Of a stretch of DNA of 64,000 bases, positions 1,290 to 47,040 are shown in pieces. Source of the DNA: Eubacteriales bacterium (GTDB taxonomy: Bacteria > Bacillota > Clostridia > Oscillospirales > CAG-272); contig JAZNNR010000017.1 in assembly GCA_045580325.1 (NCBI GenBank), positions 5,682 through 69,681 of the forward strand, written 5' to 3'. The first letter of the stretch is position 1, and each line of letters opens with the position of its first letter. Made by a program: the position numbers and the translations under genes. The notes below the pieces were generated by a model that saw nothing but the letters and a program-made list of their open reading frames with translations, searched no databases and was not told the origin of the DNA.

Positions 1290-2198
1290 TCATTTTACGA
1301 GTGTTAAAATAAACTCAAAATTACCGTCAAGGGCTACTCTATCGCTCCATATCGGTAAAAGGACGCTGCTGCCCGCGTGCACGTTGAGTGCACCCACTTT
1401 ACCCTTACCCGAAATAACAAGCAAGTGGCGGAATTTATCACATTTTCCTTCAATTTCCTTACAAATTGCACTGCTTTTCTTTTCAACTCTGAAAATATCA
1501 CAGTCAGCAAGAAGCTCATCGCTGATTTTATCCGCACACGAATATCTTATCTTGTCAATTTCGCTCTGTGTACGAAGCTCTATAACGTCAAGCGCCTTTT
1601 TTATATGGAGCTCTCTGCCTCTGTCATAGTCATACACGCGGTAGGTAACGTTAGAAGACTGTTGTATCTCGGCAATAAGTATTCCTGCGCCTATTGCGTG
1701 AACACAGCCTGCGGGGATAAAGAAAACGTCGCCGCTGTGAACGTCAACGTAGTTCAGGCACTCATCTATTTTGTTTTCTTTGACTGCTTTTCTAAAATCA
1801 TCTTTGCTCACGCCCTCGCGCAGTCCGTAAACGAGCTGTGCGCCCGGTCTTGCATCTACGACGTACCACATTTCAGTTTTGCCGAGGTCGCCCTCGTTTT
1901 CGCGTGCATACTCATCGGCGGGGTGAACCTGCACCGAAAGATCCTTTTCGGCGTCAATAAACTTTATAAGTACGGGAAAATCCTCCGTACCGTAAAGCTC
2001 GGAGAGAGGCGCTCCCGAAAGCTCGCCGCTGGCGATCATATTCGTAGCGTCAGCTCTGACGGTAAGCTCCCACGTTTCAGCAATTCGCTCGTCCGCGCCG
2101 TTTCCTTTTCCGAATTCGCGTGCGAGTCTGTTTCCGCCCCAAATTATGTCTTTACAAATCGGGGAAAGAAGGATCGGCTCGTTAACATTCTTTTTCAT
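1290..2198 (-). CDS. manA: mannose-6-phosphate isomerase, class I
   Basis: 302-aa ORF with PMI-type-I signatures (IWGG, ETWE, VQVHP, GKTEMWYV, FIPAG..HA). Confidence 0.85.
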   Translation of the reverse strand: MKKNVNEPILLSPICKDIIWGGNRLAREFGKGNGADERIAETWELTVRADATNMIASGELSGAPLSELYGTEDFPVLIKFIDAEKDLSVQVHPADEYARENEGDLGKTEMWYVVDARPGAQLVYGLREGVSKDDFRKAVKENKIDECLNYVDVHSGDVFFIPAGCVHAIGAGILIAEIQQSSNVTYRVYDYDRGRELHIKKALDVIELRTQSEIDKIRYSCADKISDELLADCDIFRVEKKSSAICKEIEGKCDKFRHLLVISGKGKVGALNVHAGSSVLLPIWSDRVALDGNFEFILTLVK

Positions 2199-2236
2199 AT
2201 CTTATTTTCCTTTCGGTAATACAGATTAACGCTCGT

Positions 2237-2267
2237 AAAAAATAAAGTCGGGAAGAAATATCCCGAC
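2237..2267 (-). terminator. rho-independent terminator after the LRR lipoprotein gene
   Basis: Hairpin GTCGGGA (2247-2253) / TCCCGAC (2261-2267), followed on the minus strand by TTTATTTTTT. Confidence 0.6.
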
Positions 2268-2284
2268 CTTATATTTTGAATGTT

Positions 2285-3097
2285 TTATTTTGCAAGCGAC
2301 GTGCAGTTATCAAATGCACCCTCGCCAACCGTCGTTACACTCGCGGGAATATCAGCCTTTGTAAGAGATACACACCACTTGAACGCGCCTGCGCCGATTG
2401 TTGTAAGCGAGGTGCCAAATTCAACCTCGGTAAGTGCTGTGCAGTATGCAAATGCGTTTTCGCCGATAGATGCAACCTTTGCGCCAAGCGTGAGGTCTGC
2501 AAGAGCGCTGCACTCTGTGCAAAGCCCTGCGGGAATTTCTGTAACGCTTACAGGGATCTCAAGTGCTGTAAGAGCGGAGCAGTATGCGAATGCTCTTTCG
2601 CCGAGTGTTGAGAGCGTAGAAGGAAGCTGAACACTTTCAAGAGAGTAGCTGTACCAGAATGCCTCTGCCGCAATCTCTGTAACTCCCTCGGGAACTACGA
2701 CCGAAGCAAGAAGTGTGTTTCTTTCAAAAGCGCCTCTTGCGATCTTCTTGACCTGTACTCCGTCTATTTTGTCGGGAATTACGAGGTCTATCGTCTTTAC
2801 CTCTTCTTCATCCTCAGAAGCTTCAGCAGCATCGTCCTCTGCCTCGTTTACAGTGAAATCATACTTAGTTATTTCGATATAGTTATCGTCTACGTAAAGA
2901 TTGTATGTATAGTTCTCATATACACAGCCGTACTTTATATTGTCCTTTGGTTTGTTTTCGTCGTCTTTTCCGTCATCCTCTTTTCCGAGAAGGTCCTCAA
3001 GCTTGATATCGTCCTCGTCGGTAGTCTTATCGGAGCCACACGATACAAGCGTCATAATAGCAAGCGCAAAAACAAGTATCAAAGCGATTTTTTTCAT
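2285..3097 (-). CDS. BspA-type leucine-rich-repeat lipoprotein
   Basis: Start moved to MKKIALILVFALAIMTLVSCG (lipobox) at 3097, with an AAAGGAAAA RBS. The C-terminal half is repeated ...IP.SVT.IG..AF..C..L... LRR_5-like units. Confidence 0.75.
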   Translation of the reverse strand: MKKIALILVFALAIMTLVSCGSDKTTDEDDIKLEDLLGKEDDGKDDENKPKDNIKYGCVYENYTYNLYVDDNYIEITKYDFTVNEAEDDAAEASEDEEEVKTIDLVIPDKIDGVQVKKIARGAFERNTLLASVVVPEGVTEIAAEAFWYSYSLESVQLPSTLSTLGERAFAYCSALTALEIPVSVTEIPAGLCTECSALADLTLGAKVASIGENAFAYCTALTEVEFGTSLTTIGAGAFKWCVSLTKADIPASVTTVGEGAFDNCTSLAK

Positions 3098-45253: not shown

Positions 45254-45395
45254 CACTTAGGACTTTGCCCTAAGAACCCACCAAGGACTCTGTCCTTGGA
45301 TCCTGCTTAGAAACTTTTTGAAAAGAAGTTTAAAACGATTTCTACGCAAATCGTTTAAGAACTTCAAAAACTTTACTAAAAGGGATACAAATAAG
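45254..45395. repeat. composite multi-hairpin intergenic repeat, copy III
   Basis: CTTAGGACTTTGCCCTAAG, CCAAGGACTCTGTCCTTGG, CTTAGAAACTTTTTGAAAAGAAGTTT, AAACGATTTCTACGCAAATCGTTT, AACTTCAAAAACTTTACTAAAAGGG. Confidence 0.75.
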
Positions 45396-45412
45396 AAAAG
45401 GACAGAGAGTTT

Positions 45413-45613
45413 GGCGTGATACTCTTATCGGAGTATCACGCCAGTTCTATTCGCCTGTGGCGAGTGATATTGCTACGCAGTGATATTCGGCTCGCGCCGA
45501 GTGGTATTCGCTTCGCGAGTTTCAGGGCGAATAGAATACCACTGAAGCCGCAAGGCTTCAATATCACTATCGCGTCAGCGATAATATCACTCCGACGAAG
45601 TCGGAATATCACT
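45413..45613. repeat. hairpin plus convergent array of 9-mers (3 x AGTGRTATT, 4 x AATAYCACT) alternating with mini-hairpins
   Basis: Forward copies at 45463, 45479 and 45500. Reverse copies at 45535, 45560, 45583 and 45605. The leading hairpin GGCGTGATACTC-ttatcg-GAGTATCACGCC (45413-45442) carries the related GTGATAC. Confidence 0.8.
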
Positions 45614-45614
45614 C

Positions 45615-45643
45615 TTGCTTTCTCTGCAGATTTGTGATATAAT
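45615..45643 (+). promoter_or_regulatory. extended -10 sigma-A promoter overlapping an eighth GTGATAT motif
   Basis: TTGCTT (45615-45620), 17 nt, TGaTATAAT (45635-45643). About 250 nt upstream of the GNAT start codon. Confidence 0.6.
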
Positions 45644-45899
45644 GAGCCTAACGAAAAGCCTCCCTCCGAGAGGGAGGGGGACCGCGTTAGCGGTGGAAGG
45701 AGCCTGCGTGACTTTAGGGTTGTATCAACTTTCTTGTTACGCACTCTCCCTCAGTCGCCTACGGCGACAGCTCCCTCCCGGAGGGAGCCCCAGGGTACGC
45801 TCAACTTTAGGGGTATGGCATAGCCCGAAGCCTTTGTAATACAAAGGCTAAACTGGCGATAAAGCAGAATGATAAACAGGAGTTTAACAAAGATATATT

Positions 45900-46340
45900 A
45901 TGGATAATTTGACTTATGAACAAATGCATGATGAAAATGATATAATGATTCCTAAACTTAAAGAAATATATCGACTCCCGGAAGTTTCAAGATATCTGAA
46001 TATTAGTGATAATTATTTTTGCTATGTCACCAAGACCTACGGTGTATATTTTTACAAGGTGTGGAATAAGGACGAATTGATTGGCGCAATACACCTTGAA
46101 CTAAACGAGAATTTACTTTATATGGATATTCTGATATTTCCAAAGTTTCAAAGAAAAGGTTTTGCAACAAAAGTAATTGAAGATATTCAAAATGATATTT
46201 TCAAACTTAACTACAATAAAATTGAAATCTCTATTGATGAAACAAATAGTGCATCGTTAAAATTATTTGAAAGCACAGGATTCACACGAACATCAAAAGA
46301 CGATGAGTTAATAAACCTTGTTTATCAAAAAATAAATTGA
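45900..46340 (+). CDS. GNAT-family N-acetyltransferase
   Basis: 146 aa with FPKFQRKGFATKVIEDI (acetyl-CoA motif A). Visibly AT-rich compared with flanking genes. Confidence 0.8.
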   Translation: MDNLTYEQMHDENDIMIPKLKEIYRLPEVSRYLNISDNYFCYVTKTYGVYFYKVWNKDELIGAIHLELNENLLYMDILIFPKFQRKGFATKVIEDIQNDIFKLNYNKIEISIDETNSASLKLFESTGFTRTSKDDELINLVYQKIN

Positions 46341-46488
46341 CATATTCCAATGTATAGAATAGCAACCCCCGGCAGACTTATGTAAAATCTGTCGGGGGTA
46401 ATTATTTGCTTACTGCGAAGCAAATCTGTAAAATGTGATTTCTCCGATAAGGACATCACGCTTTATCTTCTCTGTCCTTTTTTACAGG

Positions 46489-47040
46489 CTATTTCATCTC
46501 ATTATACCTTCTTGCAACCTCGATCATATCGGCGAGCATTTCGTCCCTACGGCTCTCATCACGGAGCAGCAGCGACGGGTGATAAACGGCAGTCATATCG
46601 TACTGCCCTTTTTTTATCCATTTTCCGTGCTCCCTCGTTATTCTGTAATCGGGGGAGATAAGGCGCATCGCCGATATTCTGCCAAGGCAGACTATCATTT
46701 TCGGCCTTATAAGTCTTACCTGCTCGCGAAGATAGTCTATACACACGTCCTGCTCCTCGGGGAGCGGATCGCGGTTTTTCGGCGGACGGCACTTTAGAAT
46801 ATTTGCTATGTAGACCTCATCTCTGTCGATTCCGACAGCCTCGAGATATTTATCAAAAAGCTTTCCTGCCGCGCCGACAAAGGGTATTCCCGTTTTGTCC
46901 TCCTCGCCGCCCGGAGCTTCGCCGACAAACATCAGCTTTGCATCTCTGTTTCCCGTGCCGAAAACGAGCTTTGTGCGTGTATCGCCCAGCGGACAGCGTT
47001 TGCAGCTTTCACAGCTTAGCTTAAGTTCTTCCCAAGTCAT
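46489..47040 (-). CDS. uracil-DNA glycosylase, family 4
   Basis: CKRCPL, VFGTGNRDAKLMFVGEAPGGEEDKTGIPFVGAAGKLFD, HPS. Confidence 0.9.
   Translation of the reverse strand: MTWEELKLSCESCKRCPLGDTRTKLVFGTGNRDAKLMFVGEAPGGEEDKTGIPFVGAAGKLFDKYLEAVGIDRDEVYIANILKCRPPKNRDPLPEEQDVCIDYLREQVRLIRPKMIVCLGRISAMRLISPDYRITREHGKWIKKGQYDMTAVYHPSLLLRDESRRDEMLADMIEVARRYNEMK

Follow-up and report, generated by a model that had tools for sequence, protein, structure and literature searches.

The window analysed here is a 64,000-nt stretch of DNA from an Eubacteriales bacterium (Clostridia, CAG-272). Between its gatD and UDG genes, short repeated boxes alternate with small hairpins immediately ahead of a promoter and an acetyltransferase gene. 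The initial annotation compared these repeats with iterons, with an operator array for a DNA-binding protein and with the terminal repeats of a small non-autonomous element. What is this array, how did it come to lie between two transcription units, and what might read it?

A two-armed array of the Gut-1 type

The AGTGRTATT boxes reported in the initial annotation are all present, on the forward strand at 45463, 45479 and 45500 (L2, L3 and L4) and on the reverse strand at 45535, 45560, 45583 and 45605 (R1 to R4). A degenerate eighth box, AGTTCTATT at 45443–45451 (L1), makes this a convergent 4+4 array of two arms around a centre, GGCGAATAGAA, at 45526–45536. The array spans 171 nt on the forward strand (45443–45613) and ends in inverted 9-mers (AGTTCTATT / AATATCACT). 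Its gaps hold seven mini-hairpins, all different and including the five listed previously, with stems of 2–6 bp and no T-tracts; the predicted fold of the whole has an energy of −100.8 kcal/mol (z = −11). A chance cluster is ruled out: the window contains 8 copies of the 9-mer where 0.78 are expected, a count that 0/100 shuffles reach, and dense clusters occur at four loci only. The genome-wide search that had been proposed found clusters of at least six copies of the 8-mer at those four loci only; the 8-mer alone is not rare (169 copies versus ~89 expected).

The Rfam model of the Gut-1 RNA motif (RF01706) matches the left arm on the forward strand (45442–45512) with 49.1 bits (E = 5e-8; gathering threshold 50 bits) and the right arm on the reverse strand (45556–45626) with 35 bits, and three sister arrays in this genome, identical in architecture, reach 52.6–58 bits. 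The array also contains the features that define the motif, which are at least three short hairpins with covarying stems and a conserved GUGAWAU-type linker. Rfam match and aligned copies together identify it as a complete Gut-1 hairpin-array element with both arms, of the GTGATATT form. Gut-1, reported only from gut metagenomes, consists of short covarying hairpins with a conserved GUGAAAU-type linker and is listed among candidate non-coding RNAs without known function (RF01706; Weinberg et al. 2010, Genome Biol 11:R31, PMC2864571).

All four arrays in the genome have the pattern “+++---”; each is preceded by a terminator-like hairpin and followed by a promoter, and their neighbours are small genes unrelated to one another. 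This arrangement gives no support to the comparison with iterons: the 9-mers are split between two arms of opposite orientation, the four copies are chromosomal and there is no rep gene. Plasmid-type iterons or a replication origin, which would call for direct repeats of ~17–22 bp beside a rep gene and an AT-rich unwinding region, were rejected. Two other box-like sequences were considered as extra boxes and discarded, since neither is conserved in sister copies. The hairpin described as leading the array is present, with a perfect stem, but its GTGATAC is replaced by GGGGAGATACTCC and similar sequences in other copies; the GTGATAT over the −10 element is present here but reads GTGTTATAAT in the sister copies.

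A mobile cassette with the array at its head

The array is the head module of a mobile accessory-gene cassette of ~1.06 kb (45410–46468), which consists, in order, of the leading hairpin, the array, a promoter, a structured leader RNA, a GNAT gene, a terminator and an inverted leading hairpin. The leading hairpin, GGCGTGATACTC-ttatcg-GAGTATCACGCC (45412–45443, forward strand), has a perfect 13-bp stem with arms at 45412–45424 and 45431–45443 and forms the left inverted repeat of the cassette. Together with the U-rich first box it is flagged as terminator-like, with the tail TTCTATTCGC, and it precedes the GTGATATT array subfamily, with covarying stems, in many MAGs. The promoter claimed for this locus, TTGCTT-17-TGATATAAT, can be read on the forward strand at 45615–45643, with its −35 at 45615–45620, a 17-nt spacer and an extended −10, TGATATAAT, at 45635–45643. 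A single nucleotide separates the last box, R4 (last position 45613), from the −35 (first position 45615). A simple promoter scan does not list this predicted promoter because its −35 matches TTGACA at only 3/6 positions; it is nevertheless credible because its extended −10 is perfect and the genome holds 17 near-identical copies (pattern TCTGC[CA]GATTTGTG[TA]TATAAT). The promoter is conserved across genera together with the leader.

The hairpin-rich leader proposed between promoter and GNAT gene is real and ~230 nt long (45650–45875, forward strand). It contains a core of five hairpins (45654–45789) and a 3′ module, GGGGUAUGG..GCCUUUGUAAUACAAAGGC..GGCGAUAAA, at 45810–45864. At least 12 copies occur in this genome, and matches were found in 80/151 genomes of the family. 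RNAalifold assigns 55 pairs to the leader, 11 of them with compensatory changes; 96% of alignment cells are paired, against 44–55% when the partners are slid, and 0/500 shuffles reach the observed covariation score. On the gene-sense strand G.U outnumbers A.C by 83 to 17. The leader thus behaves as RNA, unlike the array mini-hairpins, which have no G.U excess. A search of the leader against Rfam gave no match at E ≤ 1, and it is an undescribed multi-copy structured RNA family that is absent from Rfam. An IS110-type bridge RNA was rejected as its identity, with no DEDD/IS110 gene in the genome.

The cargo is a GNAT acetyltransferase gene of 146 aa (45900–46340, forward strand; Pfam Acetyltransf_1/10/3, E about 5e-9), which is as AT-rich as had been noted, with 28–29% G+C compared to 44–52% in the flanks. 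A PADLOC defence-system search with the GNAT protein and with the PF05635 protein discussed below returned no match. The gene is followed on the forward strand by an inverted repeat with a T-rich tail, CCCCCGGCAGA..TCTGTCGGGGG (46366–46408), which reads as the cassette terminator and recurs after a related GNAT gene in another genus (G071). The right end, GTGATTTCTCCGATAAGGACATCACGC (46435–46461, reverse strand), repeats the leading hairpin in inverted and diverged form; positions 45414–45433 pair with 46442–46461 over 20 nt at 85% complementarity. Outside these repeats lie the arms of a bidirectional host terminator, AAAAGGACAGAGA at 45396–45408 and TCTCTGTCCTTTT at 46469–46481, which are complementary at 13/13 positions and have no assigned strand. 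The right arm adjoins the 3′ end of the UDG gene (46489–47040, reverse strand), so that the cassette sits in the loop of a split terminator hairpin between gatD and UDG.

The comparison of the murT-gatD/UDG interval with relatives that the initial annotation had called for shows that the cassette is absent from it in sister species G003 and G007. The gatD–UDG interval measures 1236 nt here, 190 nt in G003 and 915 nt in G007, where another gene occupies it together with a similar terminator hairpin that is intact. Four other cassettes in the same genome are bracketed by split terminator arms (A-tract stem ... stem T-tract), and the ends of sister cassettes are marked by TTCTCATAAGGA / TCCTTATGAGAA pairs. 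The G071 cassette, at an unrelated locus, has a GNAT gene 98% identical to this one, the same leader and no array; it shares the closing hairpin after the GNAT gene and has a homologous right end. The gene was not found in the same-genus genomes searched, and a metagenome scan for an empty site recovered the locus flanks in 0/120 returned hairpins. Of the suggestion that the repeats belong to a non-autonomous element, the insertion therefore stands, as array and GNAT gene together, while the array is not the cassette's termini: it is an optional head module. GTAG..CTAC REPIN-type doublets occupy its slot in sister cassettes C14, C32 and C1.

The insertion shows the traits of mobile insertion cassettes, with a passenger gene between inverted repeats, no transposase gene and variable presence among relatives. 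Other classes of element were considered and set aside. Integron gene cassettes are promoterless ORFs that end in attC sites and are inserted at attI beside intI, whereas these cassettes carry their own promoter and terminator and lie alone in a terminator loop. An invertible switch was rejected, since the inverted repeats enclose both the promoter and the gene it serves. A link between the cassette hairpins and Y1/RAYT transposases was also rejected, as the weak Y1_Tnp (Y1-transposase-like) matches in the genome all lie away from the hairpin motifs.

Array architecture and a candidate PF05635 partner

Gut-1 arrays are spread across several Clostridia families and are patchy, occurring in 41/61 relatives with 0 to 51 Rfam matches per genome. 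The 58 oriented copies in other MAGs are 169–179 nt long and of fixed polarity; all are convergent and none divergent. Arrays always come directly after a terminator-like hairpin, often with a second, convergent terminator downstream, and they are hairpin-dense on both strands. Their position after terminators and their hairpin density are what would be expected of a passive insulator, a hairpin stack that would only strengthen termination between transcription units, without a partner to bind it. We consider such an insulator very unlikely: the mini-hairpins are short stems lacking T-tracts, and invariant 9-mer boxes, distinct box variants and a 4+4 count are needless for termination.

The covariation of the array was assessed in an alignment of 38 copies from other genomes that share the 169–179-nt architecture. 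Double-sided changes occur in every stem, and the score obtained was matched by 0/500 shuffles. Watson-Crick pairs make up 91% of the mini-hairpins, which have 17 G.T and 16 A.C pairs and therefore no strand bias, in contrast to the 83 to 17 of the leader. A long-range complementarity joins L1 and the 5′ arm of the first hairpin to the array centre, is 99.3% paired across copies and reads A-U in 15, C-G in 11 and U-A in 11 copies at one position. This helix and two inner rungs between the arms are 98–99% paired, and where one side alone has changed, nearly every change gives G.U on the top strand (14 G.U and 2 compensated G-C). A full “ladder” in which all four box pairs would join was rejected: the two inner rungs are the only ones that hold, and the outer rungs are systematically mismatched, in 32/38 and 18/38 copies at single positions. 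The arms are also unequal, with 16/76 variant boxes on the left and 3/76 on the right (p = 0.002), and box spacing has no helical phase, being 20–26 bp on the right and 16 or 20–21 bp on the left. Arrays follow a co-directional gene 22 times versus 6.

Much of this evidence can be turned toward RNA. The array could act as a structured non-coding RNA or UTR element whose boxes, exposed as single strands between the hairpins, are read by an RNA-binding protein, possibly the PF05635 protein itself, or whose arms pair with each other. Its match to an RNA-motif covariance model, its strong predicted fold with covarying stems, the top-strand G.U changes in the long-range helix and inner rungs, its fixed polarity and its preference for co-directional upstream genes are consistent with this, and variable box spacing matters less in a folded single strand. 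Two units, C18 in this genome and L255, also leave no space for a promoter between array and PF05635 start codon. The array, however, starts at a terminator-like hairpin with a U-rich box and ends at an outward-firing −35, and because of this it fills a spacer without a promoter of its own. Read in the orientation of the Rfam model, the right arm could be made only by transcription running leftward out of a rightward promoter region. The mini-hairpins lack the G.U excess of the leader, and the outer rungs are mismatched. We judge an RNA role for the array unlikely.

Relatives point to a protein partner. Their canonical unit consists of a terminator, an array whose last box overlaps the −35, a promoter and a gene of the PF05635 family; the overlap falls on the TTGAC of a TTGACA −35 in units with AATGATG, ATGAAGC, GTGAAAT and GTGATAT boxes. 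Among 61 relatives, 35 have both Gut-1 and PF05635, 6 have Gut-1 only, 3 have PF05635 only and 17 have neither (Fisher p = 1.4e-7). A convergent array of exact 7-mers lies within 330 nt upstream of 21/29 PF05635 genes, as against 14/5000 random windows. The box variant tracks the clade of the PF05635 protein, and in sister species G004 and G005 GTGATAT arrays are followed by GTGATAT-clade PF05635 genes. PF05635 covers Avd, a diversity-generating retroelement accessory protein, and 23S rRNA intervening-sequence proteins (PMC10053308), and the candidate protein carries the RxxxSxxxNxxE motif (PMC3936711). The closest solved relative of this genome's PF05635 protein is 2RLD, with five chains. To our knowledge, Avd binds nucleic acid with no established sequence specificity, the PF05635 four-helix bundle has no known DNA-binding activity, and we know of no role for PF05635 (23S-IVS/Avd-like) proteins outside diversity-generating retroelements.

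The canonical unit, together with box sequence that follows protein clade, suggests that the array is an operator-like docking array and that an Avd-like PF05635 protein is probably its binding partner. The overall explanation, that a Gut-1 array heading a cassette is an operator-like docking platform for PF05635 that has been orphaned at this locus, has in our judgement an even chance of being correct. The 4+4 boxes would offer multiple docking sites to an oligomeric, Avd-like four-helix-bundle protein, which, once bound, may set the output of its own promoter and so autoregulate, because the last box overlaps the −35 in the canonical unit. The leading terminator and the array would keep transcription from upstream out of the unit. 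The mini-palindromes may be kept as hairpin-forming DNA on both strands and, when extruded or single-stranded, may hold the boxes in constant geometry. A plain double-stranded operator leaves the covarying hairpins, the long-range complementarity between L1 and the centre and the unequal arms unexplained.

The operator-array reading of the initial annotation is the best supported of those it offered: boxes abut the core promoter here and overlap it in relatives. Its cognate protein is a putative one, whose gene stands beside the array in G004 and G005 but not here. The remark that nothing in the window encodes a cognate binder is borne out, as the only PF05635 gene in the genome lies on another contig (C18), behind a 4+4 GCGATAT array, and no gene of the matching GTGATAT clade was found in this genome. 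The array is for that reason read as an orphan head, in which the leader core and the GNAT cargo gene would have replaced the PF05635 ORF; it may be either unregulated or cross-read by the single GCGATAT-clade protein on C18. A pattern scan found a PF05635 gene directly after only 4/58 GTGATATT arrays. This low adjacency, the missing clade, the unphased spacing and the lack of known sequence specificity in Avd count against docking. The tracking of box variant and protein clade could also reflect co-inheritance of a linked unit without contact.

Several of the same observations would also fit a selfish, REPIN- or MITE-like hairpin repeat that has no host function, is copied or moved, in single-stranded DNA form, by an enzyme that recognises 9-mer-flanked hairpins, and persists in safe sites between terminators and promoters. 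The array is multi-copy and patchy across families, has a uniform length of ~172 nt and inverted 9-mer termini, keeps its hairpins on both strands as DNA hairpins would, and is optional in otherwise identical cassettes; REPIN-type elements fill its slot in sister cassettes, and weak Y1-transposase-like matches exist in the genome. Such a repeat is an improbable explanation. No target-site duplication was seen at the array flanks, and for the array by itself neither a filled nor an empty site was found; no transposase is linked to it, the genome has no IS110 gene, the cassette hairpins lie away from the Y1 matches, and the constant abutment on the −35 and the match between box variant and PF05635 clade are left unexplained.

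The docking platform can be extended into a more ambitious proposal, which is quite unlikely to hold in all its parts. Gut-1 arrays and PF05635 clades would be orthogonal, co-evolving recognition pairs, and a pentamer of the Avd-like four-helix-bundle protein would read the 4+4 boxes only once the mini-palindromes are extruded. The resulting structure-dependent, supercoil-sensing operator would serve as the portable head of cassettes that home to terminator loops, and a 135-nt structured RNA could take the slot of the protein gene.

Gut-1 has been an orphan motif since 2010, and what is catalogued as an “RNA” corresponds to a single arm of a larger, polar, promoter-adjoining element. Gut-1 and PF05635 are two orphan families that each gain a candidate partner, and they become jointly testable because relatives point to an Avd-like protein as the likely partner of the array. 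The locus also brings to light a family of accessory-gene cassettes that target terminators in uncultured gut Clostridia, and it reveals a multi-copy structured leader RNA that Rfam lacks. Annotation of MAGs is affected through the repeats themselves, through pseudo-ORFs across palindromes and through strain-variable cargo such as GNAT enzymes.

Comparison with known systems

The array resembles the Gut-1 RNA motif in its short covarying hairpins and conserved linker, with 49.1 bits for the left arm and up to 58 in sister copies. The Rfam model describes a single arm, whereas the unit here has two convergent arms, fixed polarity, a leading terminator hairpin and long-range complementarity. It also differs from Rfam's Gut-1 in lying in a promoter-less spacer against a −35, with box variants each linked to a PF05635 clade, and its stems lack the strand bias that an RNA label would imply.

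Omega-type operators consist of many short direct and inverted boxes at a promoter, to which a small, oligomeric protein encoded nearby binds cooperatively. The omega repressor heptads of inc18 plasmids (5′-WATCACW-3′) are contiguous, and their protein is a ribbon-helix-helix dimer. The array likewise has many short boxes in direct and inverted orientation at a promoter, and its box AATATCACT contains TATCACT. Its boxes are, however, 16–26 bp apart with a hairpin in every gap, and the candidate protein is a four-helix bundle.

Like the REP/BIME/REPIN sequences of E. coli and Pseudomonas, the array is a multi-copy, intergenic, inverted palindromic repeat that follows genes, shows compensatory hairpin changes and forms mosaics with other repeat modules in this genome. 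It differs from REP/REPIN in having no GTAG tag, seven different palindromes joined by a constant 9-mer in place of one repeated palindrome, and no linked RAYT gene; with Y1_Tnp matches both weak and distant, membership of a REP/REPIN family with RAYT was rejected.

Mobile insertion cassettes and promoter-bearing MITEs, such as the Correia elements of Neisseria, are bounded by inverted repeats, lack a transposase gene and bring a promoter, and the insertion cassettes also carry a passenger gene. The present cassette is similarly small, bounded by inverted repeats, promoter-bringing and without transposase, and its presence varies among relatives. Unlike these elements, its ends are hairpins and its target is the loop of a terminator hairpin. 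Its head is, in addition, modular in a way that insertion cassettes are not, with an optional array and with a leader core or a PF05635 ORF filling the same slot.

The candidate partner belongs to PF05635, as do Avd and the 23S intervening-sequence proteins; it carries the RxxxSxxxNxxE motif, and its nearest solved relative is the five-chain 2RLD. Unlike Avd systems, the arrays examined have no reverse transcriptase or template repeat next to them. In contrast to genes for 23S intervening-sequence proteins, the units lie outside rRNA genes, and the protein is paired with a clade-matched array.

Identity and anatomy of the array

The array between gatD and the UDG gene (45443-45613) matches Gut-1 (RF01706), an orphan family in Rfam, with both of its arms (49.1 bits on the plus strand and 35 bits on the minus strand). 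The initial annotation described convergent AGTGRTATT boxes alternating with mini-hairpins, and all seven exact boxes are in place, three on the plus and four on the minus strand, as are all of the mini-hairpins and a leading hairpin whose 13-bp stem is perfect. AGTGRTATT is matched eight times in the window against 0.78 expected, and a degenerate box, AGTTCTATT at 45443, completes a 4+4 array. A genome-wide motif search of the 1.93-Mb genome gave exactly four box clusters, each ordered +++---, three of which pass the Rfam threshold. Each is flanked by a terminator-like hairpin on one side and, on the other, by the promoter of a small gene, and these genes are unrelated.

When one genome per species was scanned for the exact pattern, 120 loci came back, with sources in Acutalibacteraceae, Oscillospiraceae, Christensenellaceae and Lachnospiraceae MAGs from human and ruminant guts. 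Orientable copies (n = 58) are convergent in every case and divergent in none, measure 169-179 nt and have a fixed polarity. Their common order, with L and R for boxes of the left and right arms and hp for mini-hairpins, is leading hairpin, a U-rich L1 (AGTTNTATT), hp1, L2, hp2, L3, hp3, L4, hp4, the centre GGCGAATAN, R1, hp5, R2, hp6, R3, hp7 and R4. Boxes are spaced by 20-26 bp in the right arm and by 16 or 20-21 bp in the left. The arms are also unequal in sequence: variant boxes number 16/76 on the left versus 3/76 on the right (p = 0.002), where boxes are nearly invariant.

In an alignment of 38 copies, every array stem has double-sided changes, and the observed covariation score was reached by none of 500 shuffles. 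L1 and the 5' arm of hp1 have an 11-bp long-range complementarity with the array centre that is 99.3% paired, with one position occurring as A-U in 15 copies, C-G in 11 and U-A in 11. The same complementarity recurs, in wholly different sequences, in the AATGATG, GTGATGT, GTGAAAT and GCGATAT forms, which are named by their box 7-mers. A full inter-arm ladder is unsupported: pairing reaches 98-99% in the inner rungs L4-R1 and L3-R2, which include 14 G.U and two compensated pairs, but the outer rungs are mismatched systematically. The array's hairpins, its long-range pairing and the inequality of its arms show that it is more than a plain duplex operator; some single-stranded or extruded form of it is under selection. 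Such covariation would suit an array that acts as RNA, and its predicted fold is very stable on either strand (z about -11). The mini-hairpin stems have no strand bias (17 G.T versus 16 A.C among 870 pairs), and we regard action as RNA as unlikely.

Leader RNA family and inserted cassette

The annotated promoter, TTGCTT-17-TGATATAAT, is present. Its -35 matches the consensus at only 3/6 positions, so that a simple promoter scan misses it; it is credible because the extended -10 is perfect and the genome has 17 near-identical copies, which precede the leader as its own promoter. The hairpin-rich leader that follows (~230 nt, 45650-45875) is likewise as annotated and has no match in Rfam. It has at least 12 copies in this genome, with other sites at C1:9586, C7:61124, C14:58890, C18:10999, C18:108725(-), C18:164236, C23:34557, C25:56139, C31:68891, C31:74229(-) and C32:126540 (C numbers are contigs), and matches in 80 of 151 genomes of the family. 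The leader comprises a core of ~135 nt and a 3' module of ~55 nt. Its fold has five or six hairpins, 11 pairs show compensation, and cells are paired at 96% versus 44-55% when partners are slid. The excess of G.U over A.C pairs (83 versus 17) marks the leader as a sense-strand RNA. Genes downstream are unrelated and small (three GNATs, an HD hydrolase, a P-loop kinase and small membrane or unknown proteins); stand-alone units ending in a terminator also occur, and the 3' module can stand alone beside arrays in either orientation. In the sources searched, the leader is an undescribed multi-copy structured RNA family. ORFs of 73-102 aa across array and leader (45416..45637 and 45615..45839 on the plus strand, 45436..45744 on the minus strand) are palindrome artefacts that risk being miscalled as genes.

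The GNAT gene (45900-46340) is AT-rich as annotated, with 28-29% G+C versus 44-52% in its flanks. A 20-nt inverted repeat (45414-45433 and 46442-46461), formed by the leading hairpin and its inverted copy, encloses array, promoter, leader, GNAT gene and terminator; beyond it lie perfectly complementary 13-nt outer arms, AAAAGGACAGAGA and TCTCTGTCCTTTT. Four further cassettes in the genome are bracketed likewise by different A-tract-stem and stem-T-tract arms, each pair of which makes up one bidirectional terminator, split in half. The gatD-UDG interval is 1236 nt here, 190 nt with no cassette in sister species G003, and 915 nt in sister species G007, with a different gene and a similar terminator hairpin intact. 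The GNAT gene is absent from the same-genus genomes searched. Another genus has a leader-GNAT cassette at an unrelated locus (L344, G071:C40, locus coordinates ~1380-2300, minus strand) with a 98% identical GNAT and the same leader and right end. This cassette has TCGGCAGAG..CTCTGCCGA as its promoter palindrome and lacks an array. These comparisons bear out the suggestion that array and GNAT gene are an insertion, in which the array is a head module that can be absent. No strain-level empty site for this locus emerged from a scan of metagenomes.

REPIN-like GTAG...CTAC doublets (C14:58810-58860, C32:126470-126520 and C1 near 9500) lie after the leading hairpin and before the promoter, where the window has its Gut-1 array, and the C14 cassette has an inverted copy at its far end. 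The stretch from the gatD stop codon to the cassette (45256-45395) has further hairpins, namely CTTAGGAC..., then CCAAGGAC-tct-GTCCTTGG at 45281-45299 and AAACTTTTTGAA / TTCAAAAACTTT at 45311-45374. The left terminator arm has a second potential partner here, CTCTGTCCTT at 45288. An earlier insertion may have left this stretch as debris.

PF05635 proteins and relation to known elements

Gut-1 and PF05635 (Avd-like four-helix-bundle) genes are statistically linked: among 61 relatives, 35 have both, six Gut-1 only, three PF05635 only and 17 neither (p = 1.4e-7, with kinship ignored). A convergent exact-7-mer array lies within 330 nt upstream of 21/29 PF05635 genes versus 14/5000 random windows, and PF05635 clade and box sequence track each other. 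The canonical unit in relatives is a terminator, an array whose last box overlaps TTGACA, a 17-nt spacer, TATAAT, a short UTR and the PF05635 gene. Sister species G004 and G005 pair GTGATAT arrays, the form in the window, with GTGATAT-clade proteins. In loci L321 (G004), L249 and L323 (G005), a PF05635 ORF occupies the slot of the window's leader core, and the 3' module GGGTATGGGCTTTGCCC..GCCTTTGTAATACAAAGGCGAAACTGGCGATAAA lies just past its stop codon, before the cargo gene; this module may be a junction of cargo exchange. At G000 C18:57693-58320, the only PF05635 gene in this genome is directly behind a 4+4 convergent GCGATAT/hairpin array, with a space between last box and start codon too short for a promoter. 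The window's array is thus an orphan in a genome without its cognate protein, and this locus by itself can be only so informative.

The boxes are candidate docking sites for the PF05635 protein, whose binding beside the -35 would set promoter output. It is reasonably likely that the array acts at the DNA level, because it occupies a spacer that follows a terminator and precedes an outward promoter, because all box variants keep the last box at a fixed position relative to the -35, and because its hairpins lack the RNA-type bias found a few bases downstream. A purely selfish array would accord with its place as an optional module of inserted cassettes; alongside the fixed last box and the clade-matched boxes, we consider this improbable.

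Sources searched gave no description of the two-armed polar unit and its promoter placement, of box variants matched to PF05635 clades, of the array as an optional head of terminator-targeting cassettes, or of the leader RNA family. The nearest solved relative of the PF05635 protein is 2RLD, with five chains; the family has been linked to Avd, and its free-standing genes have been given no function (PMC10053308, PMC3936711). The window array itself is a member, or near-threshold member, of the catalogued Gut-1 motif.
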